From a virus: a stretch of 64,000 nucleotides of DNA. The notes under the pieces are model-generated. The model was not told where the DNA came from. It searched no databases and saw nothing but the letters and a program-made list of their open reading frames with translations. The stretch is taken from the IMG/VR virus record IMGVR_UViG_3300028802_000398, one strand, 5' to 3'. Positions 20,615 through 44,841 of the stretch are shown in pieces; position 1 is the first letter of the stretch, and each line of letters begins with the position of its first letter. A program made the position numbers and the translations under genes.

Positions 20615-20619
20615 AGCTC

Positions 20620-21819: not shown

Positions 21820-22068
21820 CGAATGCTCTGCACGAACGGGCCGTGACTGGACCTGGTTTCAAGAATAGGGTGTCACGAGTGCCTCATGAATCATGAGTCG
21901 TGCCAGGTTCTCAGGGTTGAAGTAGCTTGCGAGGGCTATACAGTCTGGCGTGGGGTATGGCCTGCGTATGGGCTCTCAAGCACTACGGGAAGTTTGCAAG
22001 CCAGGATATGTGAAGCTGACCGACGCATGTACTGGACGCGCGCTGTCATGAGCATGTAGAAGCGGCAG

Positions 22069-25356: not shown

Positions 25357-25389
25357 CCGGTGGGTGCGAGGCTTGGTGTACTGGCCTAG

Positions 25390-25935: not shown

Positions 25936-26093
25936 AGGACCCAAGAACTTAGTCCGAGACGACGCGGTAAGGTCTTATCTCGTTAGGGGTAAGATGGTAC
26001 TTGGATTACCTTGTATCACAAAATCCTGTCTCTATGAAAAAAGGATTCTAGGGGAAGGTTGCATGGCGTGGTTGTGCGGCTAGCATCTTCTCT

Positions 26094-26402
26094 ATGAATA
26101 GAGACACTCACGCGGCCCCCCAAGCACTGAGGATGCGGGACGATGCTCGGGGATGTCGTGCAAAATACTCCAATGTATCCTATGTGCACTCTCGTGCACG
26201 CTGCGACCATGATGATTGTGGAGAGTGCCGTCGGTGCAATCTATGGATTTGCGTGCGCTGTGGAGGCGTCGAGGGCACCCTAACCAAGGCCGGTTGTCCT
26301 GGGTTTCAGCTCACGCAGGAAGAGCTGGACTTGGTTTTCGAGGGGTGGCTTTCGGCCCGTGATGTCCTGGAGCTGCGGCTGGCCTCGGAAAAAGAACTAT
26401 GA
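26094..26402 (+). CDS. Small Cys-rich (Zn-finger) protein
   Basis: CxHxxCxxCxxCxxxxCxxC pattern. Confidence 0.5.
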   Translation: MNRDTHAAPQALRMRDDARGCRAKYSNVSYVHSRARCDHDDCGECRRCNLWICVRCGGVEGTLTKAGCPGFQLTQEELDLVFEGWLSARDVLELRLASEKEL

Positions 26403-26410
26403 TTCGACGT

Positions 26411-26485
26411 GCGGGGTTAACTCAGTGGTAGAGTGGTTGTCCTACAAACAACTGGCCGGGGGTTCGAGTCCCTCACCCCGTACCA
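26411..26485 (+). tRNA. tRNA-Val(TAC)
   Basis: GCGGGGT/ACCCCGT, GTTGT-CCTACAA-ACAAC, CCA. Confidence 0.9.
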
Positions 26486-26487
26486 AT

Positions 26488-26561
26488 GCGGACGTATCCC
26501 AACTGGCAGAGGAAGTACGTTGAGTACGTACCAAGTGAGGGTTCGACTCCCTTCGTCCGCA
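26488..26561 (+). tRNA. tRNA-Leu(GAG), short variable loop
   Basis: GCGGACG/CGTCCGC, GTACG-TTGAGTA-CGTAC. Confidence 0.85.
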
Positions 26562-26573
26562 CTATTTTCGCAT

Positions 26574-26657
26574 GCGAGCGTGGCGTAACGGAAAACGCGG
26601 TCGGCTCAAACCCGGCTACCCTAGAGGCACCTGCAGGTTCGACTCCTGTCGCTCGCA
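26574..26657 (+). tRNA. tRNA-Leu(CAA)
   Basis: GCGAGCG/CGCTCGC, GTCGG-CTCAAAC-CCGGC, variable arm present. Confidence 0.88.
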
Positions 26658-26664
26658 CTATTTT

Positions 26665-26740
26665 GCCCACGTAGCCCAATCGGCAGGAGGCAGCGCACTT
26701 AAAACGCGTTCAAGTGAGAGTTCGAGTCTCTCCGTGGGTA
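26665..26740 (+). tRNA. tRNA-Leu(TAA), short variable loop
   Basis: GCCCACG/CGTGGGT, loop CTTAAAA. Confidence 0.85.
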
Positions 26741-26744
26741 CTTC

Positions 26745-26818
26745 GCCCTTATAGCATAGTGGAATTGCACCGCTCTGGTACGGCGGTGGCCCGAGTTCGA
26801 TCCTCGGTGAGGGCTCCA
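26745..26818 (+). tRNA. tRNA-Thr(GGT)
   Basis: GCCCTTA/TGAGGGC, CCGCT-CTGGTAC-GGCGG, TCCA. Confidence 0.9.
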
Positions 26819-26819
26819 T

Positions 26820-26896
26820 GGGACGTTAGCTCAACGGTCAGAGCGGCAAGCTTATATCTTGTGTCATTTGAGAAGGTTCAACTCCTTCACGTCCTA
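26820..26896 (+). tRNA. tRNA-Ile(TAT)
   Basis: GGGACGT/ACGTCCT, GCAAG-CTTATAT-CTTGT. Confidence 0.82.
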
Positions 26897-26900
26897 CCGA

Positions 26901-26990
26901 GGAAGATAAACCGGAAAGGCTAGCCGGTCCCCGTTGGAAGCGGGTGAGTGCCCGAAAGGGTATGGGCTTCGAATGCTCTGTCTTCCGCCA
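26901..26990 (+). tRNA. tRNA-Ser(GGA)
   Basis: GGAAGAT/GTCTTCC, loop TTGGAAG, long variable arm, GCCA. Confidence 0.85.
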
Positions 26991-27031
26991 CGGGCTACGG
27001 TAAAGCTCTTGTTTGTCGACATTCTGTGCGA

Positions 27032-27053
27032 GGCGCGGCGGTGGGTCCGAGCC
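27032..27053 (+). promoter_or_regulatory. Conserved 5' leader element, copy 1
   Basis: GGCGCGGCGGTGGGTCCGAGCC; 20/22 identical to 43039-43060 (minus strand). Confidence 0.6.
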
Positions 27054-27068
27054 CAAAGGATTTGACCG

Positions 27069-27806
27069 ATGCACAAGATTGCCAACACTAGTGAGCTTCA
27101 ATCCGAGCTACGCCGCCTCTTGGCGTATGCGCAGAGCCAACATCCTTCACGTGTTGCGCTAGCCAGTGCTTGTCAGGAGCTTGGCGAACGAGTCGCCGGG
27201 CAACGTGAGGCAGCCGCGCCATCCACCTTTCGATACGTGCCGCCGCAAGCCCGAGACAAGGCCCCGGTTGACCCGGAAGGCACGGACGTAGCGGCCTGGA
27301 CGTATGAAGTGCCCGACACGAGAGGCCGCATCATCTATTACGCGATCGCGTTTGTCGGCAAGCAGAGCAAGCCGATCTGGCACCACTCGTTCGGGACCCG
27401 TGAGAATGACCGCGACAATGCTATCCGCGAGCTTATCGAAAGCCGCAAAGAGCGCATTAAATCCAAGGAGAAGGAACGGGAGGAGAAGCGAAGCTTCAAG
27501 ACTGACCTGTTCATGGGCGACATCCTCTATTCGAGCTGGGGTTACGAGCAGACGAACGTTGATTGGTATGAAGTCATCGAGGTCACCGGCCCTCAATCAG
27601 TCATAATCCGCGAGATCGGCGCAAAGGTGGTGCGTTCTGATAGTGTAGGGAATGACTACGTGGCTGGGGTTCCTGGGAACTATATTGGCCCGGAAATGAA
27701 GAAGCGTGTGGCGCGAGGTGACACGATCAAGATCACCAGCTTTGCCAGTGCCTCCAAATGGGATGGCAAGCCTAGATATCAGACCGGCGGTCACGGCGGT
27801 CACTGA
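27069..27806 (+). CDS. Hypothetical protein with KIANTxELQxELRR N-terminal module
   Basis: First ~45 aa shared with 42620-43015; unrelated C-terminal domains (GDILYSSWGYEQTNVDWY). Confidence 0.75.
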   Translation: MHKIANTSELQSELRRLLAYAQSQHPSRVALASACQELGERVAGQREAAAPSTFRYVPPQARDKAPVDPEGTDVAAWTYEVPDTRGRIIYYAIAFVGKQSKPIWHHSFGTRENDRDNAIRELIESRKERIKSKEKEREEKRSFKTDLFMGDILYSSWGYEQTNVDWYEVIEVTGPQSVIIREIGAKVVRSDSVGNDYVAGVPGNYIGPEMKKRVARGDTIKITSFASASKWDGKPRYQTGGHGGH

Positions 27807-27817
27807 TAGAGATACTT

Positions 27818-27891
27818 GCGGGTAAGATGTAACGGCTGCATGACTGGCTTCCAACCAGTTCGAGTGGGTTCGACCCCCTCTACCCGCACCA
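27818..27891 (+). tRNA. tRNA-Gly(TCC)
   Basis: GCGGGTA/TACCCGC, CTGG-CTTCCAA-CCAG, CCA. Confidence 0.9.
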
Positions 27892-27892
27892 A

Positions 27893-27963
27893 GCGAGCAT
27901 CGTTCAGTGGCAGGATGGCTGCTTCCCAAGCAATAGACGCGGGTCCGATTCCCGCTGCTCGCA
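27893..27963 (+). tRNA. tRNA-Gly(CCC)
   Basis: GCGAGCA/TGCTCGC, loop TTCCCAA; T-loop TCCGATT. Confidence 0.8.
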
Positions 27964-27972
27964 CTAGATAAC

Positions 27973-28043
27973 GGCGCGGTGGTCGAGTGGTTAGGCAGCT
28001 GGTTGCAACCCAGCCTACGTCGGTTCGATCCCGGCCCGCGCCT
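27973..28043 (+). tRNA. tRNA-Cys(GCA)
   Basis: GGCGCGG/CCGCGCC, GCTGG-TTGCAAC-CCAGC, U73. Confidence 0.9.
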
Positions 28044-28061
28044 CCGGTGTAGTGACACCAT

Positions 28062-28137
28062 GCTCCCGTAGCTCAGAGGAAGAGCGCCGAGTTTCTACCT
28101 CGGGACCGCGAGGGTTCGATTCCTTCCGGGAGCGCCA
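28062..28137 (+). tRNA. tRNA-Arg(TCT)
   Basis: GCTCCCG/CGGGAGC, CCGAG-TTTCTAC-CTCGG, GCCA. Confidence 0.92.
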
Positions 28138-28142
28138 CGAAT

Positions 28143-28213
28143 GCCCTCGCAGCTCGATGGACGAGCGGCGGTTTCCTAAGCCGATGGTGAAGGTTCAATT
28201 CCTTCCGGGGGCG
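28143..28213 (+). tRNA. tRNA-Arg(CCT)
   Basis: GCCCTCG/CGGGGGC, loop TTCCTAA. Confidence 0.85.
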
Positions 28214-28215
28214 CT

Positions 28216-28404
28216 ATGTTGCGAGTCTTTCAACCATCTGAGAAGGAGCACAAGGCGCTCGTCGCTTTTGAAAAGCGCCACTCCCGGAAGTGCCAAGGCT
28301 CGATGGAGGTGACCTTCACCATCACTGGTATCGGCCTCGGGGTCCACGTGCGTTGCAGTCACTGCCACAAAGAGAAGGACGCCACGGACTACGATTCCTG
28401 GTGA
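28216..28404 (+). CDS. Small Zn-ribbon-like protein
   Basis: HSRKC ... CSHC, DATDYDSW end. Confidence 0.6.
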   Translation: MLRVFQPSEKEHKALVAFEKRHSRKCQGSMEVTFTITGIGLGVHVRCSHCHKEKDATDYDSW

Positions 28405-28407
28405 CAT

Positions 28408-28481
28408 GTCCTCGTCGCCCAAAGGATGGGCACCGGCCTCCGAAGCCGGCTGTGAAGGTTCGAGTCCTTCCGGGGACGCCA
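28408..28481 (+). tRNA. tRNA-Arg(CCG)
   Basis: GTCCTCG/CGGGGAC, CCGGC-CTCCGAA-GCCGG, GCCA. Confidence 0.92.
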
Positions 28482-28504
28482 GCCATTGTCACAGCACGCC
28501 CCTC

Positions 28505-28906
28505 TCAAAATACGAAGTACGCACTCAGAAATGGCGTGGGTCGCCATTTTTGCCAGGGCGTGTTGGCCAGGATTGCTAGGCCGAAGTGCGGAGTTACGTC
28601 ATGGCCGAGACCTATTCCAACGGAGCGAAAGCTTGAGAACGCGTTCAGGTTAGCGCGGTAGAAGTGGAATGGCTCAATCATTATTCCGACGTCCCCGGAG
28701 TCAAGAAATCTCCGTCCGTCGACTATGTCGCGAGCGTGGACGCCAACAGCAGCTTTCAAGCGAAGCTCGAAGCCGAATTTGTGCTCTGTGTCGGAATGGT
28801 GGCGTGGGGTTGATGTCACTTCCGTCGCAGCAGCGGTGTCTTCCTGCGCGTTAGCAGAGAAGGGTGCAACGAGGGCTAATAGTAGAGCGAGACCTATGGT
28901 GCGCAT
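28505..28906 (-). CDS. Exported protein, possible small outer-membrane beta protein
   Basis: Sec signal MRTIGLALLLALVAPFSANA; alternating beta strands; C-terminal Phe (SAYFVF). Confidence 0.55.
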   Translation of the reverse strand: MRTIGLALLLALVAPFSANAQEDTAAATEVTSTPRHHSDTEHKFGFELRLKAAVGVHARDIVDGRRFLDSGDVGIMIEPFHFYRANLNAFSSFRSVGIGLGHDVTPHFGLAILANTPWQKWRPTPFLSAYFVF

Positions 28907-28970
28907 ACCTAAGTCCCCACATCAGAAATTTATGGGGCCATTTCAGGTCCCGTCCTTTCTGGTACGCTAT

Positions 28971-29046
28971 GCCCGCGAAGCTCAAAAGGACGAGCGCTGC
29001 GCTTCGAACGCAGAAGTTGGGAGTTCAAGTCTCTCCGCGGGCGCCA
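28971..29046 (+). tRNA. tRNA-Arg(TCG)
   Basis: GCCCGCG/CGCGGGC, CTGCG-CTTCGAA-CGCAG, GCCA. Confidence 0.92.
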
Positions 29047-29053
29047 TGGTGTA

Positions 29054-29350
29054 GTGACCCTTGTGAACCAAGCAGTCTCCGACAAGATTAGAGAGCTACG
29101 GCACCTCATGGAGCACGCCACTGAAGCGGATCGGCACAAGGTCCCTGAGATGAATCAGTGGTTTGACTCGTATCTGGTGAGCGTCCACCCGGCAGAGGCC
29201 CGTGCTGTGCGGGCGGAGATCCGCAAGTTGTGGCCAACGTGTGCCATGCTCTTGATGAAGCATGCAGAGTCCCAGGACCCGGAGACCGTCGCCGCGGCGG
29301 TTCTTGAGCTGGAGAAGATTAGGTCGCTCCGAGAGGGCGGCAAGAATTAG
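29054..29350 (+). CDS. Hypothetical helical protein
   Basis: 98-aa ORF after a GGTGTA motif; start may be GTG 29063. Confidence 0.55.
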   Translation: MTLVNQAVSDKIRELRHLMEHATEADRHKVPEMNQWFDSYLVSVHPAEARAVRAEIRKLWPTCAMLLMKHAESQDPETVAAAVLELEKIRSLREGGKN

Positions 29351-29354
29351 ACAT

Positions 29355-29445
29355 GGAAGTCGAATCGGCCAAGGGGCCGAGCCCGTTTCGAAAGCGGTGC
29401 GAACCTCGTGAGGGGTTTGGGGATCGTTACCTCCGATTTCCGCCA
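29355..29445 (+). tRNA. tRNA-Ser(CGA)
   Basis: GGAAGTC/GATTTCC, loop TTCGAAA, long variable arm, GCCA; T-loop ATCGTTA. Confidence 0.8.
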
Positions 29446-29446
29446 C

Positions 29447-29531
29447 GGAAGATCAACTCGCAAGGTGCGGGACCCGCCTTGAAAGCGGTGGGCAGGCGAA
29501 AGTCTGTGGGGGTCAGGACCTCGATCTTCCG
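29447..29531 (+). tRNA. tRNA-Ser(TGA), atypical T-loop
   Basis: GGAAGAT/ATCTTCC, CCGC-CTTGAAA-GCGG, variable arm; T-loop TCAGGA. Confidence 0.7.
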
Positions 29532-29540
29532 CTAGTGTTT

Positions 29541-29629
29541 GGAGAGTGAATTCGCCGTGGGGCGAAGCCTGTTTGCTAAACAGTGCGGACCTGAAAGGGT
29601 CTGGAGTTCGAGCCTTCCTCTCTCCGCCA
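29541..29629 (+). tRNA. tRNA-Ser(GCT)
   Basis: GGAGAG/CTCTCC, CTGT-TTGCTAA-ACAG, variable arm, GCCA. Confidence 0.85.
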
Positions 29630-29663
29630 AAAGTCGCGAATGGTTTTATGCCCCTGCAAGGAC

Positions 29664-30050
29664 ATGGATCCCAGACAAGCTTTCGAGAACGCGCTAGCCG
29701 TGGACCGGGTAGCTCAACGCTTCGCCGCAGAAGATGAAGCGCCTGCTGAGGGCAAGAAAAAGAGCGATAAGCCGAAGACGTTTGAGGCAGCTCGGACCCG
29801 TCTGCTCGATCACCTTGAATCCAAGGGCTGGAAACTTTCGAGCCGAAGTCTGAAGATCCCGTATGCGACGTCTCCGAACGGTGAAGATCGTCTGTGGTTC
29901 AAGACGCGGGCTGTGTATAAGACGCACAGCAGAGGCGGCAGTCGCGGGTACGGGCATGAGTTCAAAGATGCGCGGTCTATTTCTTACGACACCGACGATT
30001 TGAAGAACATGTCCCCCGAAGACTATTTGCGACAAGCCATCCGTGCGTAG
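29664..30050 (+). CDS. Hypothetical protein with RVAQRF N-terminal motif
   Basis: AVDRVAQRFAAED; GTTTTAT 14 nt upstream. Confidence 0.7.
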   Translation: MDPRQAFENALAVDRVAQRFAAEDEAPAEGKKKSDKPKTFEAARTRLLDHLESKGWKLSSRSLKIPYATSPNGEDRLWFKTRAVYKTHSRGGSRGYGHEFKDARSISYDTDDLKNMSPEDYLRQAIRA

Positions 30051-30081
30051 TGAATGAGTGCGGCTGTTGACAACTGATTAT

Positions 30082-30155
30082 TGGGGCGCGCCACGGGCTG
30101 GTGGCCGGGTCTCTGACACCCGTGCTTGAGAGTTCGAGTCTCTCCGCCCCAACCA
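30082..30155 (+). tRNA. tRNA-Gln(CTG)
   Basis: TGGGGCG/CGCCCCA, CGGGT-CTCTGAC-ACCCG, CCA. Confidence 0.88.
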
Positions 30156-31435: not shown

Positions 31436-31506
31436 TGGAGTGAGCTGAGGCAGTCAGCGAGTCTTTGACACTCGTGAAGAGGGTTCGACTCCCTCCACTC
31501 CAACCA
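31436..31506 (+). tRNA. tRNA-Gln(TTG)
   Basis: TGGAGTG/CACTCCA, CGAGT-CTTTGAC-ACTCG, CCA. Confidence 0.88.
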
Positions 31507-31529
31507 AACGGTCGGTGTAATTGTGCCGT

Positions 31530-32099
31530 ATGTTGATCGGCAAGAACTCTACTCCTGCGGGAGTCGCGCCGGCTATCGCGCTCATCCAGCCTAGGTTCGC
31601 CTATAACGTCGGGATGGTCGTGCGATTGGCTAGCTGCTACGGCCTCAAGCAGGTCTGGTACACGGGCGACCGCGTTCGGATGGAGGTCGAGCGCCGCGGC
31701 AAGCTCCCACGTGAGGAGCGGATGAAGGGGTACAAGGAGGTCGAGATCGTTCAGTTCGATCGGCCGCTTGAGGAGTTTCGTGACTGCACCCCCGTCGCTG
31801 TAGAGGTCCGGCCCCAGTCGGAGCGGCTACAGGATTTTGAGCATCCGAGGAATGCCGTCTACGTGTTCGGCCCGGAGGATGGCTCGATCCCGCAGTCAGT
31901 GCTCCGGCACTGCCATCGCTTCGTTATCATCCCGACGCGCAACCGGTATTGCCTCAATCTCGCGACTGCCACAGCAACGATTCTTTGGGATCGGGCCGTC
32001 AAGCTCGGCGAGATTCCGGAAGAGGAGCCCGAGTTGCCGTACGTGGAGACGGACCCCAAGGGGATGGGGCTCTATGATGATCGTGGATGGCCGGGTTGA
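31530..32099 (+). CDS. SpoU/TrmH-family RNA 2'-O-methyltransferase
   Basis: P....NVG.VVR..., YVFGPEDG, IP....CLNLA (SPOUT motifs 1-3). Confidence 0.85.
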   Translation: MLIGKNSTPAGVAPAIALIQPRFAYNVGMVVRLASCYGLKQVWYTGDRVRMEVERRGKLPREERMKGYKEVEIVQFDRPLEEFRDCTPVAVEVRPQSERLQDFEHPRNAVYVFGPEDGSIPQSVLRHCHRFVIIPTRNRYCLNLATATATILWDRAVKLGEIPEEEPELPYVETDPKGMGLYDDRGWPG

Positions 32100-32507: not shown

Positions 32508-34391
32508 ATGGGTAAAATGGCAAACGAAAACCTTGGACCGGCAGAGCGCATTCTCGACACCGTGATCGGCTACTCCGACCACTGCGTCCACAACCGCGCA
32601 GGTATTGTGATCCCGGATGTTGGCTCCGCGATCGGAGTGAAGTGGCTTCCGGTCACTCACGTCGTTGAAGACGGGGACAAGGTTGTCTACGAGTTACGCA
32701 AGGTCGGCAAGAAGACTGCCAAGTTCAAGCTCGGCAAGCTCAAGGAGGACGGTCGCGTCAAGGACGTGAATCGGGTCATCGGTCGTTACCAGCCCGCGGG
32801 GCTCTTCGCAGATGTAGCGGTGTGGATGTATCGCCAGGTCGTCGAGGTTTGGAAGCTCGACAATGAGTTCGCGGCCAAGTGGGCATCGCACGAGTTCGTG
32901 CAGCTGCAGGAGCGGCGTGACCTCAAGGTGATCATGGCGGCATTCCTCTTGGTTCAGTCCCGCAAGGGTGACCCGGTGATTGATGCCGGCAAGGTCGCTT
33001 TCTTCGATGAAGACTTGCGAGATGTCGGAGAGGCCATGCTGTTGTTGAGCGGCAAGGACATTAAGGACGTGAAGTCGTTCAACCCGAAGCTTCTGCTTCG
33101 TGTGCATGACGTGTTGATGTTGCCAGGAGTGGCGGCGATCAACCGTGAGCTTGGTTTTGGTCGCTCGGCGCGTAACCCATTCTTGGGCCGTTGGACTAAG
33201 GCGGTAGAGAAGTGGCTTCTCTTCCGTGAGGAAAATCCGCGTCTGCTTGATGGTTTGGTGAAGGCAGGGTTTCGTCGCACGGTGATGGAGTTGGCGCGTC
33301 GTGTTCACTACAAGCCGACCACCCCGCGCTTCTTTGAGGCGCTGCGTTGGAAGCAAGCCCAGGCCAAGGATGGTCGCCGATCGATTGCGATCGGTCAGGC
33401 GGTGCAGGCTGCTGAATCTTGGGAAGGCTTCACCGAGCAACAGATTTGTGAGGCGATCGTCCGCACTAGACCAAACTTCAAGCGCGTGGTTGGGCTTTTA
33501 CCAAAGGGTCAGGGCCTCACCCGTGCGATCGTCGCTGCCGCAATCGAGGTTGGCGCGATGTCTGACAAGGATCTGATCATCGCAACTCCGACTCTTGAGG
33601 AACTTGGTCTCTTGGATGTTCAAGAGGTTCGCGAGCGTTGGGAGCGGGCTATCAAGGCCGCGGAGGATATGCGGGCCGTGAATATCGCGACTCGCGTCAA
33701 GTCCACGGCTACTCAAGAGAAGCTACATGAAGCGGCGGATAACGCCGTCAAGCTAGCTGTCGCCGAAGTTGTCAGGGGTCTCCGCATCTATGTGATCGTG
33801 GATATCTCGGGCTCGATGCAGAATGCGATCGTCGAGGCCAAGGTGTACATCGCCAAGTTCCTGCAGGCGTTTCCACAGGAGCAGCTGCACGTCTCGGTCT
33901 TCAGCACCGCGGGTCGTGAAGTTGAGATCAAGCATGCATCGGCTGCTGGTGTGGAGAATGCGTTCCGCGGCATCTTTGCTGGCGGCGGCACATTGCATGC
34001 GCAGGGCGTCAGGGCTCTGAGCAAGCACAAGCCCAAGGTAGATGAAGACGCGCTGATGATTTTCGTCGGCGACGAAGAAGAGCACTCGACATTCGAGGCA
34101 GCCGTGCGTGACTCGGGTATCAATCCGGTAGCGTTCGGCTTACTCAAGGTGCGTGAGTGCGTGTCGTCTTGTGTGCGCGACACCGCAGCGAGACTAGCAA
34201 TCCCGTGCTTCATGATTGAGGCGCAGACGTTTTCTGATGTCTATGCTATCCCGCGGGTCCTACGTGCATTGATCTCGGCGACCCCAGTGGGTAAGACCAA
34301 GGGCAGCCCGTTGTTTGTCCCCAGGGTCTCCCTGGTAGACACGATTCTGAATACCAAGCTGCTGGTGAAGCCCGTGTGGGCTAGCGCGTGA
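32508..34391 (+). CDS. vWA-domain protein with long helical N-terminus (TROVE/Ro60-like architecture)
   Basis: C-terminal MIDAS VDISGSM, GGT, FVGDEE; basic alpha-helical N-terminal ~430 aa. Confidence 0.75.
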   Translation: MGKMANENLGPAERILDTVIGYSDHCVHNRAGIVIPDVGSAIGVKWLPVTHVVEDGDKVVYELRKVGKKTAKFKLGKLKEDGRVKDVNRVIGRYQPAGLFADVAVWMYRQVVEVWKLDNEFAAKWASHEFVQLQERRDLKVIMAAFLLVQSRKGDPVIDAGKVAFFDEDLRDVGEAMLLLSGKDIKDVKSFNPKLLLRVHDVLMLPGVAAINRELGFGRSARNPFLGRWTKAVEKWLLFREENPRLLDGLVKAGFRRTVMELARRVHYKPTTPRFFEALRWKQAQAKDGRRSIAIGQAVQAAESWEGFTEQQICEAIVRTRPNFKRVVGLLPKGQGLTRAIVAAAIEVGAMSDKDLIIATPTLEELGLLDVQEVRERWERAIKAAEDMRAVNIATRVKSTATQEKLHEAADNAVKLAVAEVVRGLRIYVIVDISGSMQNAIVEAKVYIAKFLQAFPQEQLHVSVFSTAGREVEIKHASAAGVENAFRGIFAGGGTLHAQGVRALSKHKPKVDEDALMIFVGDEEEHSTFEAAVRDSGINPVAFGLLKVRECVSSCVRDTAARLAIPCFMIEAQTFSDVYAIPRVLRALISATPVGKTKGSPLFVPRVSLVDTILNTKLLVKPVWASA

Positions 34392-34403
34392 CCGGAGATA
34401 GAC

Positions 34404-35363
34404 ATGGGATGGAGAGACTTGCTGGAGGCAGAGGGCAGCACGATCGTGTTGCCTTGGGTCGGTGGTAGGTCACTCCGTTCCGGCGCTCGCGTCTGGTATC
34501 TCGATGGCGTGCTGCCGAAGGAGCATGCTTGGGTCAAGTTGCAGTTGAGAGGACGTAGGGCCATTGTTCAGGAGATTTGTTATCCTGAGCCCAGCAACCT
34601 GTTTCGGCGGGTTGTTGGGTACCTGGTTGGCGATCGCTTGATCGACACGGACGGCTACGTCGACCCGGACCCGAAGGTCATTGCCGCTCATTCGGAGAGG
34701 GTGCACCTGATTGATCAGGGATTGGATCGGTTTGTTCGGGTCTCTGCGGGGCGCGCTTACGAGGATGGGCCGCTTGTTTTCATTCAGCAGGAAATGCCAC
34801 TCGGGCCGGAGACGGAAGTGCAGTCGGCTTATCTAGATGACAGACCAACCGTTGACGCGGTGCCCGGCGTCACTCCTGCATTGGACGCGGCCTTTCGCAT
34901 GGCGCGTTGGCAGCGCGTCGAGGCCGAACGCAGACGCGTGGAGTTGGAGGCGCAGCGTCGTAGAGAGGGTGAAGAGAGAGAACGAGAGGCACGTCGCCGG
35001 GAGATTCTCGCGAGGCTTGGGGACGGTGCTGGTCGTCGCGAGATGGCTGCCGTCGATTTTGAGGCGGCGGCGCGGGCGGCGTTGACGGTTGGCGGCGTGA
35101 CGTATTTGGAGCACAGACCATCGCACCGCCAGGGGGAGATGGTGGTGCGCTTCCGGCTCGATGGGCGTCGATTTGAATGCACCTGCGATCGCCACACTCT
35201 CAGGATCCTAGATGCCGGCATCTGTCTGACCGCGCATGGAGACGATGATGATTTTGAACGCGGGACCAAGGGAGACACCCTTTTTACGCTCGAAAGTTTG
35301 CCCGCAGTCATCAGGCAAGCCGACCGGGAGGGGAAGCTTGTTGTGTTTCGTCACGTCGACTGA
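34404..35363 (+). CDS. Putative E2 (UBC-like) domain protein
   Basis: Coiled coil followed by beta-meander ending in ILDAGICL, matching the UBC G-x-I-C-L catalytic motif; operon context. Confidence 0.55.
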   Translation: MGWRDLLEAEGSTIVLPWVGGRSLRSGARVWYLDGVLPKEHAWVKLQLRGRRAIVQEICYPEPSNLFRRVVGYLVGDRLIDTDGYVDPDPKVIAAHSERVHLIDQGLDRFVRVSAGRAYEDGPLVFIQQEMPLGPETEVQSAYLDDRPTVDAVPGVTPALDAAFRMARWQRVEAERRRVELEAQRRREGEEREREARRREILARLGDGAGRREMAAVDFEAAARAALTVGGVTYLEHRPSHRQGEMVVRFRLDGRRFECTCDRHTLRILDAGICLTAHGDDDDFERGTKGDTLFTLESLPAVIRQADREGKLVVFRHVD

Positions 35364-35370
35364 TGATTTC

Positions 35371-35376
35371 GGTGTA
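35371..35376 (+). promoter_or_regulatory. GGTGTA promoter-like motif (representative copy, before JAB)
   Basis: TTCGGTGTAA 10 nt upstream of ATG; the motif recurs before many genes. Confidence 0.55.
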
Positions 35377-35386
35377 ATACAGCACG

Positions 35387-35761
35387 ATGTCCATCGAAGT
35401 CGGCGTACTGGTCAATCTCGATTGCGAGCCTTTTTTTTGGCATCTGCCGGAGGGACGCGAAGTCGCCTCGCTCCCCGACAGTCGAGACCTTTGGAATATC
35501 ATCTGGGATCACAGAGACGAGGTGTTGGGGTTCGCGCATAGTCATCCTGGGTCTGGTGTGCCCGAACCGTCGGAAGAGGATCTGACGACATTTGCGGCGG
35601 TCGAGTCTGGTCTCGGTAAGCGGCTCGTGTGGTGGGTTACGAGCCGTGACGAGTCTATAGAGCTATATTGGCGCGGGCCGGGCAAGCTTGATTATGGCAC
35701 GGTACCGGTGATGTATGAGCCAGAGTGGATGTCGGAGTTGCGGACTCTCTCTCGATTTTGA
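35387..35761 (+). CDS. JAB/MPN metallo-isopeptidase
   Basis: GFAHSHPGSGVPEPSEED = H-S-H-P-x7-S-x2-D JAMM motif. Confidence 0.9.
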   Translation: MSIEVGVLVNLDCEPFFWHLPEGREVASLPDSRDLWNIIWDHRDEVLGFAHSHPGSGVPEPSEEDLTTFAAVESGLGKRLVWWVTSRDESIELYWRGPGKLDYGTVPVMYEPEWMSELRTLSRF

Positions 35762-35772
35762 TTGGAGGATAT

Positions 35773-36036
35773 ATGGAGGAATTTGAAGCTCGCGTTAACG
35801 TCACCTACGCCGGGTCTAACGCAGACCTTCCGGACCCAGTGCCTTTCGATACCGGCGATGCTGTGGTTCGGGAGCTTGTCGAGGAAGCGATCCGAACGGG
35901 AAGCCTTCCTGGGGTCCCGCTGGATAAAGATGTCAGCCTCAGCGACTACGTTGTGGATCGATTCAGTGCGACGACGGAGCGAGGGCATCACGTGATGTTC
36001 TTGAGACCAAAGACGCCGTTCGGCACCGCGTCCTGA
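35773..36036 (+). CDS. Ubiquitin-like (beta-grasp) protein with C-terminal extension
   Basis: 87 aa, RBS GGAGG, ends LRPKTPFG-TAS; lies between JAB and E1. Confidence 0.7.
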   Translation: MEEFEARVNVTYAGSNADLPDPVPFDTGDAVVRELVEEAIRTGSLPGVPLDKDVSLSDYVVDRFSATTERGHHVMFLRPKTPFGTAS

Positions 36037-36068
36037 TGTATTTTCTAGGCTGGGAAGGATGGCACAGG

Positions 36069-36209
36069 GTGCACAGGTATAGCTGTGTTGCCTGCGGTGC
36101 CGTAGTAGAGAGCCCGCACGAGTGGGGCGGCGGACCCCCTCCTAAGTGCCCCGAGGGTTGCCGGTTCGATCCGGAGACAAAGATATGGACAAGACGAAAG
36201 GCGGAATGA
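36069..36209 (+). CDS. 46-aa Zn-ribbon protein (not in the ORF track)
   Basis: MHRYSCVACGAVVESPHEWGGGPPPKCPEGCRFDPETKIWTRRKAE; TGA overlaps the E1 ATG. Confidence 0.55.
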   Translation: MHRYSCVACGAVVESPHEWGGGPPPKCPEGCRFDPETKIWTRRKAE

Positions 36210-36772
36210 AGGTGACTGTTATCGGAATGGGAGCCCTTGGCTCCCATTTCATTTTGTTCGCTCGAAACTTCGCAGAGCTGAAGGGGATCGACGATGGTCG
36301 TGTGAAATCGAAGAGCCCTGTGGCGCAGTTTCACGGCAAGCCGCAAGTTGATCGCGGCAAGGCACAAGCGCTCCAGCAGACCATGCAGTTCTTGTTTGGG
36401 GTCAAGGTCATGGCGGTGCCGCACCGGCTTACCGTAGACAACACTCAGCAATTGCTTGGCGGCGCCGATCTGTTGGTTGACTGTTTGGACAACGCGCCAT
36501 CACGTGGGCTGGTTCAGGCTTTCGCGCGTTCTAGTGGGACTCCATGCTTGCACGGTGCGTTGGCGGCGAACGGGCAATACGGTCGGGTTGTCTGGGACGA
36601 GTATTTTGTGATTGATGGGGCGGCTCCGGGCGCGGCGACTTGCGAGGACGGAGAGCACTTGCCTTTCATCGCTATGGTTTCTTCTCTGTTGTCCCGCGCT
36701 GCTCAAGAGTTCTTGGGTAGCGGGCGCAAGATCGGCTTTGAGATTCATCCTACTGGTGTAGCCAGGACCTAG
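36206..36772 (+). CDS. ThiF/E1-like adenylating enzyme
   Basis: VIGMGALGS nucleotide-binding loop, LLVDCLDN..SR, candidate catalytic Cys in AATCED. Confidence 0.85.
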   Translation: MKVTVIGMGALGSHFILFARNFAELKGIDDGRVKSKSPVAQFHGKPQVDRGKAQALQQTMQFLFGVKVMAVPHRLTVDNTQQLLGGADLLVDCLDNAPSRGLVQAFARSSGTPCLHGALAANGQYGRVVWDEYFVIDGAAPGAATCEDGEHLPFIAMVSSLLSRAAQEFLGSGRKIGFEIHPTGVART

Positions 36773-37595: not shown

Positions 37596-37663
37596 ACTGA
37601 CAACGTTCATTGAAACCAGGAGAGGCGCCAGATGAAGCGGCTGAGACGCAGGCGATAGGTACC

Positions 37664-38200
37664 ATGCAACATCACACACTTCTATTAACGTCCGGGATGC
37701 AACCCCACAGGATCGTCGATTGGCGGACCGCGATCTGCAAGCTGGTCGAGGGGGAGATCGAGGTGCTTGAGAATCACGACGCAACCGTGTCGTCTCCGAG
37801 CGTCACGTTCAACATTCCGTCCGTCGCGCGAATCAAGACCTATGTTCCGATGAACAAGAAGGGCGTGAAGTTTTCGCGTGAGAACGTGTTGTCGCGGGAC
37901 AACTACCAGTGCCAGTACTGCGGTCAACGTTTCCCGCGCCGGGAATTGAATTACGACCACGTGATTCCGAGGATGCAGGGCGGAAAGACAGTTTGGACCA
38001 ACGTGGTCTCCAGCTGCATCCCGTGCAACTCAAGGAAGGGCGGCAGGACACCGGAGCAAGCCAAGATGAGACTCTTGAGGCAGCCGGTCCGGCCGGCGTG
38101 GCTCCCTCTTCAAATGCCCGCTGTTTCAGTCAAGGCGGTACCGGAGAGCTGGAGGTTTTGGCTTCAGACTGTCCCCCATTTGGAGCTGGCTTTCGGCTAG
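37664..38200 (+). CDS. HNH endonuclease (McrA-like)
   Basis: RDNYQCQYCG, NYDHVIP, NVVSSCIPCNSRKG. Confidence 0.9.
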   Translation: MQHHTLLLTSGMQPHRIVDWRTAICKLVEGEIEVLENHDATVSSPSVTFNIPSVARIKTYVPMNKKGVKFSRENVLSRDNYQCQYCGQRFPRRELNYDHVIPRMQGGKTVWTNVVSSCIPCNSRKGGRTPEQAKMRLLRQPVRPAWLPLQMPAVSVKAVPESWRFWLQTVPHLELAFG

Positions 38201-38425: not shown

Positions 38426-39358
38426 TTACGGTTGTACCGTCCGCACGTCTATGCCTTCATTCTTGATGCGGAATATCCTGCCGGCACAGTCTCGGCCGAT
38501 GAATAGCCCGACCAAGCCAACTTTCTTGCACTCCGCTACGATGGGGACGAACCATCCGCTAGGGATCTGCTTGCCGCAGGCTTCGCATCCTCCTCCGTTA
38601 CTGAAACGCGACATGCCAAACTTGGTGTTAGTGGGCCAGATAACTTTGTGGATGTCTTCCATCACCGGCTCGCCGAACCTCATGATTGGCTCGCCTTGGG
38701 CATTCAGCTTCGGCTTCTCTCCGACCTTCCGAATGGGCGGAACCTTTACCGTCGAGAGGTCAATATCTAGGTCCATCTCGAACAGGGTTTTGGTCACCTT
38801 CGGGCTCAAACCTTTTGAGGTGATCTCGGGCGGCCGCTGAGCTTGTTCGTAGTTTGCGATGAACTCGTCGACTTGGGCGATTGCTGTGGTTTCGTTACGA
38901 AACCAAGCACCCACCGCCTCTTCATATTTTGAAAGACGGAAAGAGTCGTACTCGATGGTTGCGCCGTTTGGCGCTCGTAACTGAACCTTCCCGGTGGGCA
39001 ATTCCTGCCGCTCCCAGCCGAGCCAGCTTACCGCGTTCAGCAGAGGGCGAGTCGCGTAGTTTCCGCGCTGGACCTTTTTGAGGGAGTCGTACAGCTGCTT
39101 CTGTTCTCGCTGCTTGCGTTTCTCATTCAGGTCCATGGCCGCACTGTAGCGGTGCCAGACGGTCTCGGCGATGGACCTGGGGTGCATACAAGGTGCCTCG
39201 CATAGAAAGATCCAGGATTTGAGTTTCGGAGCTTCGGTGTACGGCTGGAGATGCCGAACACCGTTTCGTACCAAGTATCCAAAGACCTGTTTTTGGTCCA
39301 TCAGCAACACGCGGCGGACCAAGCACCAAAGGTTGCGGTCGAGCTGCCTACCAATCAC
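38426..39358 (-). CDS. Hypothetical protein with C-terminal Zn-finger; true start probably downstream of 39358
   Basis: CEACGK ... GRDCA; long ORF. Confidence 0.6.
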   Translation of the reverse strand: MIGRQLDRNLWCLVRRVLLMDQKQVFGYLVRNGVRHLQPYTEAPKLKSWIFLCEAPCMHPRSIAETVWHRYSAAMDLNEKRKQREQKQLYDSLKKVQRGNYATRPLLNAVSWLGWERQELPTGKVQLRAPNGATIEYDSFRLSKYEEAVGAWFRNETTAIAQVDEFIANYEQAQRPPEITSKGLSPKVTKTLFEMDLDIDLSTVKVPPIRKVGEKPKLNAQGEPIMRFGEPVMEDIHKVIWPTNTKFGMSRFSNGGGCEACGKQIPSGWFVPIVAECKKVGLVGLFIGRDCAGRIFRIKNEGIDVRTVQP

Positions 39359-41611
39359 TTCGCAGTGATCGATTGCTCGGGATCGATGTACTCGGACCTT
39401 CCGCGCATCCGTGAGCAGCTCAAGCGTAAGCTACCCAAGCTCCTGAAAGAGCAAGACACGATTTCGCTGATCTGGTTCAGCGGTCGGGGCGAGTTCGGGA
39501 CCCTCCTGGAGGCCGAGCCGGTCGCCACGCTCACCGACCTCAAGGCAGTGGAGCAAGCGATCGATCGTTGGCTCAAGCCATGCGGGCTGACTGGGTTCAC
39601 CGAGCCCATTCAGGAGGCGGGTAGGGTAGTGGAACGCGTCGCGAAGGCTCGTCCAGGCAGTGTCAGCAGCCTCCTATTCTTGTCCGATGGCTGTGACAAC
39701 CAGGGCACTCGCGCCAGTATCCTCAAGGCGATGGAGGAAGCCGCTAACGGTTTCCAGTGCACCACGGTTGTGGAGTATGGGTACTACGCGGATCGCAATC
39801 TCCTGGCTGCCATGGCTGAGAAGGCGGGCGGTACTCATATCTTTGCGGAGGACTTCACTCGCTACTCGCCCACATTCGAGGCGGCTATGCAGAAGCGCCC
39901 CGTGGGCGCGCCCCGTGTCGAGGTGGTGGTTGACGGGGACCCGATTCAGGGGTTTGTGTTTGCTCTGCAGGACGGGGACTTGATCACGTACTCGGTCGAG
40001 GGCGGCAAAGTCCGAGTGCCAGAAAACCTCTCGGGCTTCTGGTTCGTCTCCCCGGCACAGGTCGGCGTCCCGAGCACGATGGCCTTCGCGGACAACGTTG
40101 CCTATGAAGCCTCGCAGGCGACTCCGCAGCTCGCCGATAATATCTGCGCTGCCTTTGCGGCCATCTCGCTTTACGCCGTCCGGATGAAGCCCAACATCGT
40201 GTACCCACTGCTCAAGGTGCTCGGTGACGTATCGCTCGTTGAGGAGTTTGCGAATTGCTTCGGCAAACAGCGGTACTCGGATTTCCAGGAGCACGCCAAG
40301 AAGGCGGCGTTCGGTGAGGGGGCGTTCAGCAAGGGCTACGACCCCAACCGGGTGCCCGCGGATGATGCCTTCACTGTCCTCGACTTGCTGCAGCTGCTTT
40401 CCAGCGACGACGCCAATCGTGTGTTGCTCGATGATAGTCGCTTCCGCTACAGCCGCATCGGCCGCGGTCGAGTCGACAGTAGTGACCAGCTAACTGACGC
40501 TGAGCAAGACGAGATTCGCACGCTCACTGACGAGATGGCTCGGATCAAGAAGGCATCTCGCATCTCGGAGATCACCGCACGCATCACTGAGATCACGGCG
40601 AGCAAGCCCGCTGCCTTGAGGTTCGAGGCGGACCCCGCGCCCACGGGATATTCAGTTTCTTCACTGACGTTCAACGAAGATCGTCCGAACGTGTCGTTTC
40701 TCATTCGCAAGGCCGGAACGGTCAACCTGAGCGAACGACTGTCGGACACCTTGTTCACTGTGCCGGACACGTTCAATACGCAGGTCTTTCGCAACTATAC
40801 GGTGATCAAGGACGGGCTAGTCAATATTGACCAGCTGCCGGTCAATCTGACCAAGGAGAGCTATGCTTCCTTGCGCGAGAAGCTCGGAGACAAGCTCGAC
40901 CAGGTCTTTCAGGTCGATTACTACAGTGAAGGGGCTGTTGGAGCGATTGGCACTCTGAACCTGCGCGAGCTGCCGGTAATCAATCGCAAGATGGTACGGG
41001 ATGTGAGTGCGAAGGACTTCTTCGCACTCCAATACCAACTGCTGGTCGCGCAGGCGGAGCAGAAGGTCTACAACGGATTCGTTAAAGAGTTGGCTCCTAA
41101 AGAGCGCTCTGAGGGGATCAAGGAGCAATACGGCGAACAAGCGGCGCTGTGGCTCAAGGAGCAGGGCATCACGGATGGCGGATTCGCGCCGAAGAGCGTC
41201 CAGGCGGAGAGCACGGACTTCTACATGGGCAAGGAGCTGAAAGTCTCGCTCAAGGGCTACTCCAAGCTGCCAAGTCTGAAGGAAGCACAGGCCTCGATCG
41301 CGAAGGGCAAGATCAATGGCCCGACGGCGTTGATGCTACCGACCATCACCGAGGTCGAGGATTTCATCGTGAAGGCTAACGGCAAGACCAATGCCGTCCG
41401 CGTGTGGCTAGATGTCCAGGCGGCAGCGGCTAAGACCAAGGTTCGTGACCTGATCTTCAAGATTGCTCAGACCACCTTCGTTCTAGTCGTAGGTCAGATC
41501 TGGTTTAAGGAGTTCGCTACTCTGGATGATCAGACTCTCACGTTCGAGCCAGTGCCCGGAACCAAGATCGAGGGCAAGGTTGAGATGCGTGAGATCGAGT
41601 GCAAGATCTAG
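39251..41611 (+). CDS. Large vWA-domain protein
   Basis: VIDCSGSMY MIDAS, GLTGF, LFLSDGCDN. Confidence 0.8.
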   Translation: MPNTVSYQVSKDLFLVHQQHAADQAPKVAVELPTNHFAVIDCSGSMYSDLPRIREQLKRKLPKLLKEQDTISLIWFSGRGEFGTLLEAEPVATLTDLKAVEQAIDRWLKPCGLTGFTEPIQEAGRVVERVAKARPGSVSSLLFLSDGCDNQGTRASILKAMEEAANGFQCTTVVEYGYYADRNLLAAMAEKAGGTHIFAEDFTRYSPTFEAAMQKRPVGAPRVEVVVDGDPIQGFVFALQDGDLITYSVEGGKVRVPENLSGFWFVSPAQVGVPSTMAFADNVAYEASQATPQLADNICAAFAAISLYAVRMKPNIVYPLLKVLGDVSLVEEFANCFGKQRYSDFQEHAKKAAFGEGAFSKGYDPNRVPADDAFTVLDLLQLLSSDDANRVLLDDSRFRYSRIGRGRVDSSDQLTDAEQDEIRTLTDEMARIKKASRISEITARITEITASKPAALRFEADPAPTGYSVSSLTFNEDRPNVSFLIRKAGTVNLSERLSDTLFTVPDTFNTQVFRNYTVIKDGLVNIDQLPVNLTKESYASLREKLGDKLDQVFQVDYYSEGAVGAIGTLNLRELPVINRKMVRDVSAKDFFALQYQLLVAQAEQKVYNGFVKELAPKERSEGIKEQYGEQAALWLKEQGITDGGFAPKSVQAESTDFYMGKELKVSLKGYSKLPSLKEAQASIAKGKINGPTALMLPTITEVEDFIVKANGKTNAVRVWLDVQAAAAKTKVRDLIFKIAQTTFVLVVGQIWFKEFATLDDQTLTFEPVPGTKIEGKVEMREIECKI

Positions 41612-43320: not shown

Positions 43321-44841
43321 ATGAAAGTAGAAGCTAGACTCACACACAGCAAGGTTCGTTTTGACCAAGAGACGAACGGCCATCTGGTCGTCACCGTGAC
43401 GGCCCCGGAAACAACCACCAACGAGGAGAAGCGCCCGGCGCTCTGCATCGTGCCACTCATCGATGTGTCCCCCTCGATGGAGGGCGCGAAGCTTCTGTAC
43501 GCGAAGCGCTCGCTGATCAAGCTCATCGATCATCTCTCCGCGAATGACTATTGCGGGTTGATTGCGTTTTCGTTCTCGGCGCAGACGTTGTCCAAGCCTG
43601 TTAAGTGCACGCCAGAGGCCAAGGAAGACCTCAAGCGCAAGGTGCAGGGGCTCACGTTGAGCGGAGCCACGAACATTGCGGACGCTTTGCTTGAAGGATT
43701 CCGCGTCGCGAACAACATGGACCTTCCGAGCGAGGTGATCACCCGAGTCATCTTGTTCACGGACGGTGCGGCCAATACGGGTCCGGCGAAGACTCCGCAG
43801 GAGCTGCTCGCCCTGGTGAAGCCAAACATCGGGATCGCTTCGGTCAGTGCCTTCGGCTACGGTCTCGACGCCGTCCAGGATTTTCTCTCGGACTTGTCCA
43901 AGGCTGGCAACGGTAACTATTCGTTCGTCCAGAACCCTGACGATGCGCTCACTGCTTTTGGCAAGGAGCTTGGTGGCCTCCTAAGCACGTACGCGACGAA
44001 CTTGACGCTCGCCATTGGCCCGCTCGCGGGCCATGAGGTGACCCAAGTCGTCACGGACGTGGATGCTGAAGAAGAGGACACTGGCCAAGTTAGGCTCAAG
44101 GTGTCTGACATCTTGGCGGGCGAGACGCGCAACTTCGTGCTCTCGGTCAAGCTGCAAGCACAGAAGGCCGCCTTTCCTCGGGAAGTCAACGTATTCAACA
44201 TCCAGGCTGGGTACGACATCCTCGATGCCAACCTACGCCGCGAGCACAGGAGCCTTGGGACGAATGCCAAGGTGCAGTTCGTCAAGGACGGCGAGCAACA
44301 GGAGAAGCCTGCACCCGAACTCGACCAAATCGTCGGCTTGGCGCAACTAGTCCGGGCTCAGCTTGAGGCGGAGGACCACGCCAAGCGAGGTGACTTCATC
44401 ACAGCGCAGAGCGTGATGAACACCGTTTCCACGGACGTGAAGACGCGAGGCCTTGTTGGGATCGGGGATGTTGCTACGAGCATCGGTGCCCGGTTGCGTT
44501 CGCGGGACAGCTACGCCGGTAGTCAGGCATACCTGGCCAGCGTCACGCGTGGCGGCACCCGCGGTTATAGCGGCACCTACGAGACATCCGCCGCTCAGGA
44601 CCTGCAGTCCTTGGGTGTCAACCTGACGAATTCATCGCAGGCAACCGTGTCAGCGACCTTCGCGGCGCCGGCTGCTTTGGATGTCAGCGCTGCCCCTGAC
44701 AACACGTTGGGGGCTTGGGGTACGACGGGGAGTATCCCTTGGGGCGCGGCAGTGACGCCGGAGACGGTTACCGGCGCACCGCAGCCCGATAACCCGAAAG
44801 ACAAGAAGCGAAAGATCAGCCAGAAGTTAAAGCTTTGGTAA
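43321..44841 (+). CDS. vWA-domain protein (YfbK/VIT-like)
   Basis: LIDVSPSME MIDAS, GATNI, ILFTDGAAN. Confidence 0.85.
   Translation: MKVEARLTHSKVRFDQETNGHLVVTVTAPETTTNEEKRPALCIVPLIDVSPSMEGAKLLYAKRSLIKLIDHLSANDYCGLIAFSFSAQTLSKPVKCTPEAKEDLKRKVQGLTLSGATNIADALLEGFRVANNMDLPSEVITRVILFTDGAANTGPAKTPQELLALVKPNIGIASVSAFGYGLDAVQDFLSDLSKAGNGNYSFVQNPDDALTAFGKELGGLLSTYATNLTLAIGPLAGHEVTQVVTDVDAEEEDTGQVRLKVSDILAGETRNFVLSVKLQAQKAAFPREVNVFNIQAGYDILDANLRREHRSLGTNAKVQFVKDGEQQEKPAPELDQIVGLAQLVRAQLEAEDHAKRGDFITAQSVMNTVSTDVKTRGLVGIGDVATSIGARLRSRDSYAGSQAYLASVTRGGTRGYSGTYETSAAQDLQSLGVNLTNSSQATVSATFAAPAALDVSAAPDNTLGAWGTTGSIPWGAAVTPETVTGAPQPDNPKDKKRKISQKLKLW

Follow-up and report, generated by a model that had tools for sequence, protein, structure and literature searches.

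A conserved gene module of huge phages encodes a probable ubiquitin-like precursor, a JAMM peptidase and a minimal E1-like enzyme, and may function in protein tagging

We analysed a 64,000-nucleotide stretch (the window) of the viral record IMGVR_UViG_3300028802_000398, in which six plus-strand open reading frames (ORFs) lie nearly abutting at 32508-36772. Five of them form a core: a vWA-domain protein, a 319-amino-acid (aa) protein that we call p319, a JAMM metallopeptidase (JAB), a ubiquitin-like protein (Ubl) and a minimal activating enzyme (E1). The sixth, a Zn-ribbon gene, is a local add-on. The core occurs in huge phages within or beside tRNA arrays and in the chromosomes of Myxococcota, and we lean, by a little more than an even judgement, towards a role in protein tagging. 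An earlier note on this DNA, made from its letters alone, had described six co-directional, closely spaced genes of a phage Ubl-conjugation operon. All six ORFs were recovered on the plus strand:

32508..34391, plus strand: vWA protein, 627 aa, with an N-terminal part of ~410 aa and a C-terminal vWA domain with a metal-ion-dependent adhesion site (MIDAS); matched by VWA_2
34404..35363, plus strand: p319, 319 aa; C274 motif, predicted structure and fold searches
35387..35761, plus strand: JAMM/MPN+ metallopeptidase, 124 aa; Prok-JAB match and JAMM residues
35773..36036, plus strand: putative Ubl precursor, 87 aa, made up of an 84-aa core and the tail TAS; C-terminal RPKTPFG and tail comparison
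36036..36209, plus strand: Zn-ribbon protein, 57 aa, CxxC...CPxxC motif; accessory gene
36206..36772, plus strand: putative minimal E1-like adenylyltransferase of the MoeB/ThiF type, 188 aa; ThiF match and Cys146

The spacings are 12 nucleotides (nt) from the vWA gene to p319, 23 nt from p319 to JAB and 11 nt from JAB to Ubl. The Ubl and Zn-ribbon genes overlap by 1 nt, and the Zn-ribbon and E1 genes by 4 nt (ATGA). The true start of the vWA gene is probably at 32517 rather than 32508, and that of the E1 gene is most likely at 36206, giving 188 aa. A promoter and terminator scan of 31-38.5 kb returned signals no better than those in shuffled sequence.

The evidence for a processed Ubl comes from the JAB and Ubl genes together. 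Pfam Prok-JAB (PF14464) matched the 124-aa protein with 29.3 bits against a cut-off of 25 (E 8.5e-7), and the JAMM residues E4, H51-S-H53, S64 and D67 (H-S-H-P-x7-S-x2-D) were kept in all aligned JAB homologues, which upholds the JAMM peptidase of the earlier note. The 87-aa protein ends in PKTPFG-TAS, as had been reported. Among its homologues (65 non-redundant sequences drawn from 120-odd loci), RPKTPFG with Gly84 was invariant and was followed by tails of 0-55 residues with unrelated sequences. Loci with a JAB gene had a tailed Ubl in 51 cases and a tailless one in 10, compared to none and four, respectively, for loci without JAB (Fisher p = 0.0015). In all four JAB-less loci the Ubl stops exactly at the Gly. 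The invariant Gly, the unrelated tails and the restriction of tails to loci with a JAB gene suggest that the 87-aa protein is very likely a Ubl precursor and that the JAB, a predicted peptidase, trims its tail; a role as deconjugase is also possible. JAB-type trimming of a Ubl precursor has been shown biochemically for BilA and BilC (PMC10557695). Longer tails of 45-61 residues after the Gly, differing between phages, were seen in five of the compared loci (L001:10889-11389, L018:6394-6798, L053, L065 and L067), and these Ubls may be released from a fusion partner. The Ubl itself had no Pfam match and no match beyond chance in a profile search of the PDB. The Atlas's own model of it (pLDDT 0.75) gave TM-scores of 0.46-0.52 to the β-grasp families Ub-RnfH, BilA_UBL_2 and FERM-containing protein, a resemblance that is suggestive only.

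The 188-aa protein was matched by Pfam ThiF (PF00899) with E 3e-17 and 63 bits against a cut-off of 28.1, in agreement with the ThiF/E1 enzyme first proposed. Among solved structures E. coli MoeB is closest to it (E 2.6e-14), with ThiF, Uba4, TcdA, SAE2 and UBA5 next, and its single domain aligns to MoeB residues 34-212. The invariant residues are G7, G9, G12, D95, N96, R100 and C146 (GxGxxG loop, DN motif and R), of which Cys146 (T-C-E-x-G) aligns with C187, the crossover-loop cysteine of MoeB. The two CxxC zinc pairs of MoeB/ThiF were absent in the alignment to MoeB. All NCBIfam equivalogs searched (ThiF, MoeB, UbaA, PRTRC ThiF) scored far below their cut-offs, the best at 50 bits against the ThiF cut-off of 275, and the PADLOC Cap2 E1-E2 models matched through their E1 part only. 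Homology therefore places the protein among predicted minimal, homodimer-type, MoeB-like enzymes. Minimal E1s of this type function without a conjugating enzyme (E2) in archaeal sampylation and in the Thermus TtuB/TtuC system. Collectively, the Pfam matches of the JAB and the E1 and the invariant Gly with its variable tails bear out the Ubl/JAB/E1 part of the earlier proposal, with the Ubl encoded as a precursor, and we have high confidence that these genes form a Ubl activation and processing module.

The module is carried here by a virus. The source contig is 195,771 bp long and comes from a soil metagenome. Of the deposited phages only Virus Rctr197k is related to it; this Caudoviricetes genome of 197 kb was obtained from a methane-oxidising enrichment culture. 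ARAGORN called 34 tRNA genes in the window, all on the plus strand at 13197-30155 with small ORFs between them. Other window genes encode a phage-type GroEL, ribonucleotide reductase, NAD ligase, RecA and clamp-loader subunits, and several PHROG families were matched. From the 34 tRNAs, GroEL, ribonucleotide reductase, the PHROG matches and the kinship with Virus Rctr197k, we conclude that the contig is a jumbo phage. The earlier note had assigned the operon to a phage and had named a bacterial chromosome as the refuting case, which thus does not apply to this contig.

The gene order vWA, p319, JAB, Ubl, E1 was kept in ~120 loci from viral and genome collections. With p319 as query, IMG/VR yielded 64 viral loci, the longest contig measuring 619 kb, and in all of them the module genes kept one order on a single strand; the vWA gene was present in 63/64, JAB in 64/64, Ubl in 63/64 and E1 in 58/64. 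The reciprocal search with the Ubl found 55 loci, all of which held p319 and JAB, while E1 was present in 53 and vWA in 52. The order was kept here too, and missing genes fell at locus edges. The vWA gene was directly upstream of p319 in 63/64 and 52/55 loci. The Ubl gene preceded the E1 gene wherever both were found; the two abutted only in some loci and were separated by inserted ORFs or kilobase gaps in others. Since the five core genes recur in one order in the 64 and the 55 loci, the arrangement is far beyond chance. This supports the vWA protein and p319 as obligate partners of the Ubl/JAB/E1 module.

A scan of genome collections added ten loci in metagenome-assembled genomes, mostly Myxococcota. 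Two of these contexts are chromosomal. L012 comes from a Polyangiaceae genome of 12.3 Mb; on its 544-kb contig an EF-Tu gene borders the module on one side and three tRNA-Ser genes on the other, with a TPR Ser/Thr kinase adjoining. The L019 version, 30-40% identical, has as neighbours genes for a TetR regulator, an acyltransferase, a hydrolase and a phosphoketolase. JAB-less or split versions of the module occur in myxobacterial chromosomes; the L012 copy (L012:4555-10488) lacks JAB, and its Ubl ORF ends exactly at the Gly. Since Myxococcota have chromosomal versions, the module is not specific to phages.

Linkage on its own could also reflect two independent, biochemically unconnected modules that travel together: a vWA/p319 particle for RNA surveillance or another function, and the Ubl/JAB/E1 genes as a set of their own. 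Unrelated genes split p319 from JAB by 2-5 kb in Rctr197k, L019, L028, L058 and others, the vWA gene stays adjacent to p319, and Ubl and E1 are likewise kept together. A complex prediction with two copies of the E1, the Ubl and the p319 C-terminal domain gave no contact support, although with a score of 0.00 it is no answer and counts neither for nor against contact. The module often contains inserted HNH endonuclease genes and small ORFs, and the Rctr197k set is spread over 9 kb, yet the five genes persist. Despite these insertions, co-occurrence and order are kept in essentially all loci found from either side, including the chromosomal copies at 30-40% identity. Functional dependence predicts such persistence across divergence, and we consider a mere travelling partnership very improbable.

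The part of the module that is hardest to place is p319, which the earlier note read as an E2-like protein ending in ILDAGICL, similar to the UBC catalytic motif G-x-I-C-L. The motif is present, but at residues 268-275 of 319, within the C-terminal domain and not at the very end. The family is large: clustering at 90% identity gave more than 1433 homologous protein clusters and clustering at 50% identity gave 361, and nearly all relatives have ~300-330 aa and a common layout. The AlphaFold model of p319 (pLDDT 83.6; C-terminal domain folded alone, 83.3) consists of two small β-barrels (~11-135), a 45-residue coiled-coil helix (158-204) and a C-terminal α/β domain (205-319). The C-terminal domain is laid out as α-β4-α, with the G-x-C-L loop just after the fourth strand. 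Across 133 family representatives C274, four residues past strand 4, was kept in 133/133 and G272 and L275 in 99-100%. The C-terminal 73 residues are still 48% identical in the most distant homologue (L019), while the remainder has diverged. From these data, C274 probably acts in catalysis or as an acceptor. We considered a zinc site of C259, C261, C274 and H278 but rejected it, because C261 is kept in only 52% and H278 in only 48% of the representatives; C259 is kept in 96%. The best 150 family representatives listed include one clearly different architecture, the 2168-aa protein P0280, in which ten separate stretches match positions 11-77 of the p319 C-terminal profile.

If p319 were a diverged UBC-type E2, the operon would encode a Bil-like cascade of E1, E2, deubiquitinase and Ubl that tags host or rival-phage proteins or undoes host Ubl defence through the JAB, with the vWA protein as adaptor or E3-like substrate receptor. 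The position of the invariant Cys, in a G-x-C-L loop right after the fourth strand of an α-β4-α domain, fits such an enzyme, as do the obligate linkage of p319 with the Ubl and E1 and its lack of a catalytic His, which is expected of a transfer enzyme rather than a protease. The searches, in contrast, did not recover an E2. p319 had no Pfam, NCBIfam or PADLOC match at E <= 0.1, UQ_con and Prok-E2 included, and its alignment contains no HPN motif. A profile search of PDB sequences with the C-terminal domain returned chance matches only. Foldseek (PDB and AFDB clusters) and the Atlas shape search, run on both the full-length protein and the C-terminal domain, found no E2 and no named fold. The only clear matches were uncharacterised proteins of 266-325 aa, which may be distant relatives, together with generic α+β domains, and a single one of the many PDB E2 cluster representatives reached the fold-match list. 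Furthermore, E2s are recruited in Bil and in eukaryotes by UFD and CYS domains of the E1, which are missing here, and the chromosomal copies beside EF-Tu and tRNA genes are ill-suited to a purely anti-host weapon. The E2 assignment of the earlier note is thus unproven. We regard a true UBC homologue as unlikely, and the Bil-like cascade built on it as equally unlikely. p319 is instead a candidate Ubl carrier or ligase, or a target. A cysteine-dependent carrier is a more plausible form of this proposal than a UBC enzyme, but we still consider it less likely than not. The N-terminal barrels of p319 weakly resembled, by fold search, the RNA-binding S1 and cold-shock domains of RNase II/R and Rrp4.

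The vWA protein of the window itself scored just below the Pfam cut-offs for VWA_CoxE and VWA_2 (VWA_2, 22.5 bits against 27). VWA_2 matched all of the 11 vWA homologues (best E 1.6e-10), and the MIDAS (D432-I-S434-G-S436, T495, D522) was complete and invariant in the alignment of the 11, confirming the vWA protein that the note had placed in the operon. In an Atlas feature search TROVE clusters ranked first among the named ones, but their scores of 0.75-0.88 stayed under the tool's 0.9 mark. The vWA protein also resembles Ro60 in size and layout: Ro60 (Rsr)/Y RNA ribonucleoproteins have a large N-terminal domain with a C-terminal MIDAS-vWA, and the locus lies near tRNA genes and tRNA-like RNAs. 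They differ from the module in that TROVE (PF05731) had no match at E <= 1 in the 11 vWA homologues and none in two host-type genomes, and that Rfam, at gathering and E-value thresholds, reported only tRNAs and no Y RNA family. Our literature search found no paper linking Ro60 to Ubl, E1 or JAB; ROT/TROVE proteins in jumbo phages have been mentioned, with no Ubl set (Iyer et al. 2021, PMC7824862). A Ro60/TROVE-like N-terminal part is therefore only a lead. Three tRNA-like RNAs lie at 18780-19583, 13 kb from the module (fold z -3.0 to -4.0). They have a closed acceptor-like stem, a T-arm-like GGUUCRAnUCC hairpin and a long bulged hairpin that replaces the anticodon/variable region. ARAGORN called none of them and no Rfam family matched. 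It is possible that they are Y-RNA-like partners of a Ro60-like protein.

The neighbourhood of the module is rich in tRNA genes. They were found at <= 8 kb from it in 9/11 loci checked, and in the window two further Rfam tRNA-like matches, missed by ARAGORN, lie at 15377-15440 and at 31436-31503, the latter between a 443-aa ORF and a SpoU gene. The constant presence of tRNA genes nearby speaks for a link to RNA or translation more than for an action against host Ubl defence. No evidence was found for the counter-defence role that the earlier note had offered for the JAB.

A tRNA context would also suit a sulfur-carrier pathway. Here the E1 would adenylate the Ubl, which would be converted to a C-terminal thiocarboxylate, the sulfur would pass to phage tRNAs or a small molecule, p319 Cys274 would serve as a persulfide relay with its barrels binding RNA, and the JAB would act as in QbsD/Mec+ or TtuB. 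JAMM-trimmed sulfur carriers are established (CysO/Mec+, QbsE/QbsD), the nearest relatives of the E1 include MoeB, ThiF, Uba4 and UbaA, the module sits in tRNA arrays with a SpoU methylase adjoining here, and the S1/cold-shock-like character of the p319 barrels, though weak, would suit RNA binding. The enzymes that such a pathway uses were not seen, however: Pfam searches of the ~30 larger window ORFs found no rhodanese, cysteine desulfurase or PP-loop thiolase (TtuA/NcsA/MnmA type), and there was none among the conserved partners. In addition, the Ubl ends in FG where known sulfur carriers end in GG, and the MIDAS-vWA and coiled-coil partners resemble protein-interaction parts. We judge this pathway unlikely, marginally more so than the UBC cascade, and find protein conjugation rather than sulfur transfer reasonably probable.

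Under the protein-tagging reading, the following steps are proposed. From the comparative data, the JAMM peptidase would cut the Ubl precursor after Gly84. By homology, the MoeB-like homodimer-type E1 would adenylate Gly84 and may hold the Ubl on Cys146. The activated Ubl might then pass to a protein amine, either directly, as in E2-less sampylation, or via a thioester on p319 Cys274. The most likely site of action would be a complex of p319 and the MIDAS-vWA protein, perhaps a Ro60-like RNA-binding particle on tRNAs or tRNA-like RNAs; both of these latter steps are speculative. The JAMM peptidase may also undo the tagging. In its most extended form the proposal is that a new Ubl passes from the minimal E1 to a non-UBC carrier cysteine on p319, with its RNA-binding-type barrels, and modifies or assembles a Ro60-like vWA ribonucleoprotein that handles tRNAs or their mimics in phages and myxobacterial hosts. 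We consider this extended form rather doubtful, though a shade less so than a UBC cascade.

Several observations weigh against the protein-tagging reading. The four JAB-less loci probably represent one lineage and are therefore not four independent events, and the correlation between tail and JAB may reflect a single event. Ten loci have a JAB gene and a tailless Ubl. The only basis for the β-grasp fold of the Ubl is a TM-score of ~0.5, and its C-terminus is FG, not GG. A MoeB/ThiF-like E1 with a JAMM-trimmed Ubl is also known from pure sulfur-carrier pathways. The sequencing runs that contain the window DNA are soil-metagenome DNA only, with no RNA runs, and so provide no expression data. To these are added the negative E2, fold, TROVE and Y RNA searches described above.

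The remaining gene of the operon, the Zn ribbon, is not part of the core. The earlier note listed a 46-aa Cys protein; the Cys-rich ORF is present, but its length is 57 aa from the ATG at 36036, because the homologue in L003 also starts with MYF. The gene is translationally coupled on both sides. Only the closest relatives (L003-L005) share it; the Ubl and E1 genes follow each other at 9-62 nt in eight or nine of the compared loci, and in eight no ORF lies in the gap. Most loci lack the Zn ribbon, so we rejected it as a core part; it was also considered as a trans-acting substitute for the lost zinc site of the E1.

Other genes around the operon were noted. Directly upstream of the vWA gene are a SpoU-family RNA 2'-O-methyltransferase (31521-32099, E 7.6e-18) and then a conserved ~100-aa ORF, an arrangement common to L003/L004; in L008 an RtcB gene lies upstream of the module. 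Downstream, two more vWA-domain proteins are encoded at 39251-41611, which matches phrog_2426 (E 9e-170), and at 43321-44841, and this pair recurs behind the module in L003/L004. Just downstream of the operon, 37610-38200 encodes an HNH endonuclease (HNH_5, E 6e-16). HNH genes are likewise near or inside the module in L003, L006, L010, L011 and L017, and homing endonucleases thus seem to have invaded this region again and again. Within the tRNA region, a hybrid histidine kinase of 1095 aa (22069-25356) combines five PAS domains with HisKA, HATPase and receiver domains; such a gene would be in keeping with a host that has many signalling proteins, Myxococcota for example.

Among known systems the module is nearest to the SAMP1-3/UbaA/HvJAMM1 and Thermus TtuB/TtuC sets, then to Bil, and then to CBASS Cap2/Cap3 and the vWA-MoxR 'FtsH ternary' systems, and it belongs to none of them. 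The features that it shares with the SAMP and Ttu sets are a C-terminal Gly on the Ubl, an E1 of the single-domain MoeB/ThiF type with a crossover-loop Cys, a stand-alone JAMM protein and the lack of a recognisable E2 or E3. The weak best NCBIfam matches, all far below cut-offs, agree with this (E1 to UbaA, E 1.7e-11; JAB to desampylase, E 0.004). It differs from them in its FG ending, in a shorter E1 (188 aa) without zinc CxxC pairs, in its occurrence in huge phages beside tRNA arrays, and in two obligate extra partners, the MIDAS-vWA protein and the OB/coiled-coil/Cys protein.

Bil (BilA Ubl, BilB E2, BilC JAB deubiquitinase, BilD E1) is a bacterial antiphage ubiquitination system (PMC10557695). 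Like the module, it joins Ubl, JAB and E1 genes in one operon; its JAB trims the Ubl so that the Gly is exposed, as is predicted here, and the Atlas Ubl model has a TM-score of 0.51 to BilA_UBL_2. In contrast to the single 188-aa domain of the module E1, the Bil enzyme has two adenylation domains, one inactive and one active, as well as a mobile CYS domain. Bil also has a recognisable UBC E2 (BilB) and no vWA partner and serves host defence, whereas p319 is no recognisable E2 and the module is phage-carried. The Bil/Bub comparison made in the earlier note is not supported, since the 188-aa, MoeB-like single-domain E1 is unlike the Bil and Cap2 E1s and there is no PADLOC or NCBIfam membership. 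Type II CBASS, with an E1-E2 fusion (Cap2) and a JAB (Cap3) (PMC10097602), differs in that the module has neither the CD-NTase substrate nor the fusion, and p319 has no PADLOC match; Pfam and PADLOC found no CD-NTase or effector family in the operon. The FtsH ternary systems also couple a vWA protein genomically to JAB, E1 and Ubl (Kaur et al. 2020, PMC7159879). Their MoxR AAA+ ATPase, FtsH, β-propeller-vWA, Ubl-E2 fusion, RING E3 and caspase-like effectors (PMC7159879) are all lacking in the module. The phage Ubl/JAB pair described previously belongs to tail assembly only (Iyer et al. 2006, PMC1779556), and our literature search found no description of the present module. It is real and widely conserved in huge phages, and apparently an undescribed variant of the prokaryotic Ubl systems.

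To our knowledge, the Ubl conjugation characterised in bacteria to date (CBASS, Bil, Bub) serves host defence. In this case the Ubl/E1/JAMM set is a conserved possession of the viruses themselves, found on more than 60 IMG/VR contigs. The comparative data predict cleavage after Gly84 and roles for E1 Cys146 and p319 Cys274, and the module is compact and easily reconstituted in E. coli. If conjugation were shown, the module would be a new class of phage-encoded post-translational machinery, from which a carrier enzyme unrelated to UBC might emerge. If the vWA partner were a Ro60-type particle, protein tagging would be tied to RNA quality control or to phage takeover of translation. Should both the carrier and the ribonucleoprotein proposals be true, Ubl conjugation would be directly coupled to RNA surveillance or translation in prokaryotic viruses.

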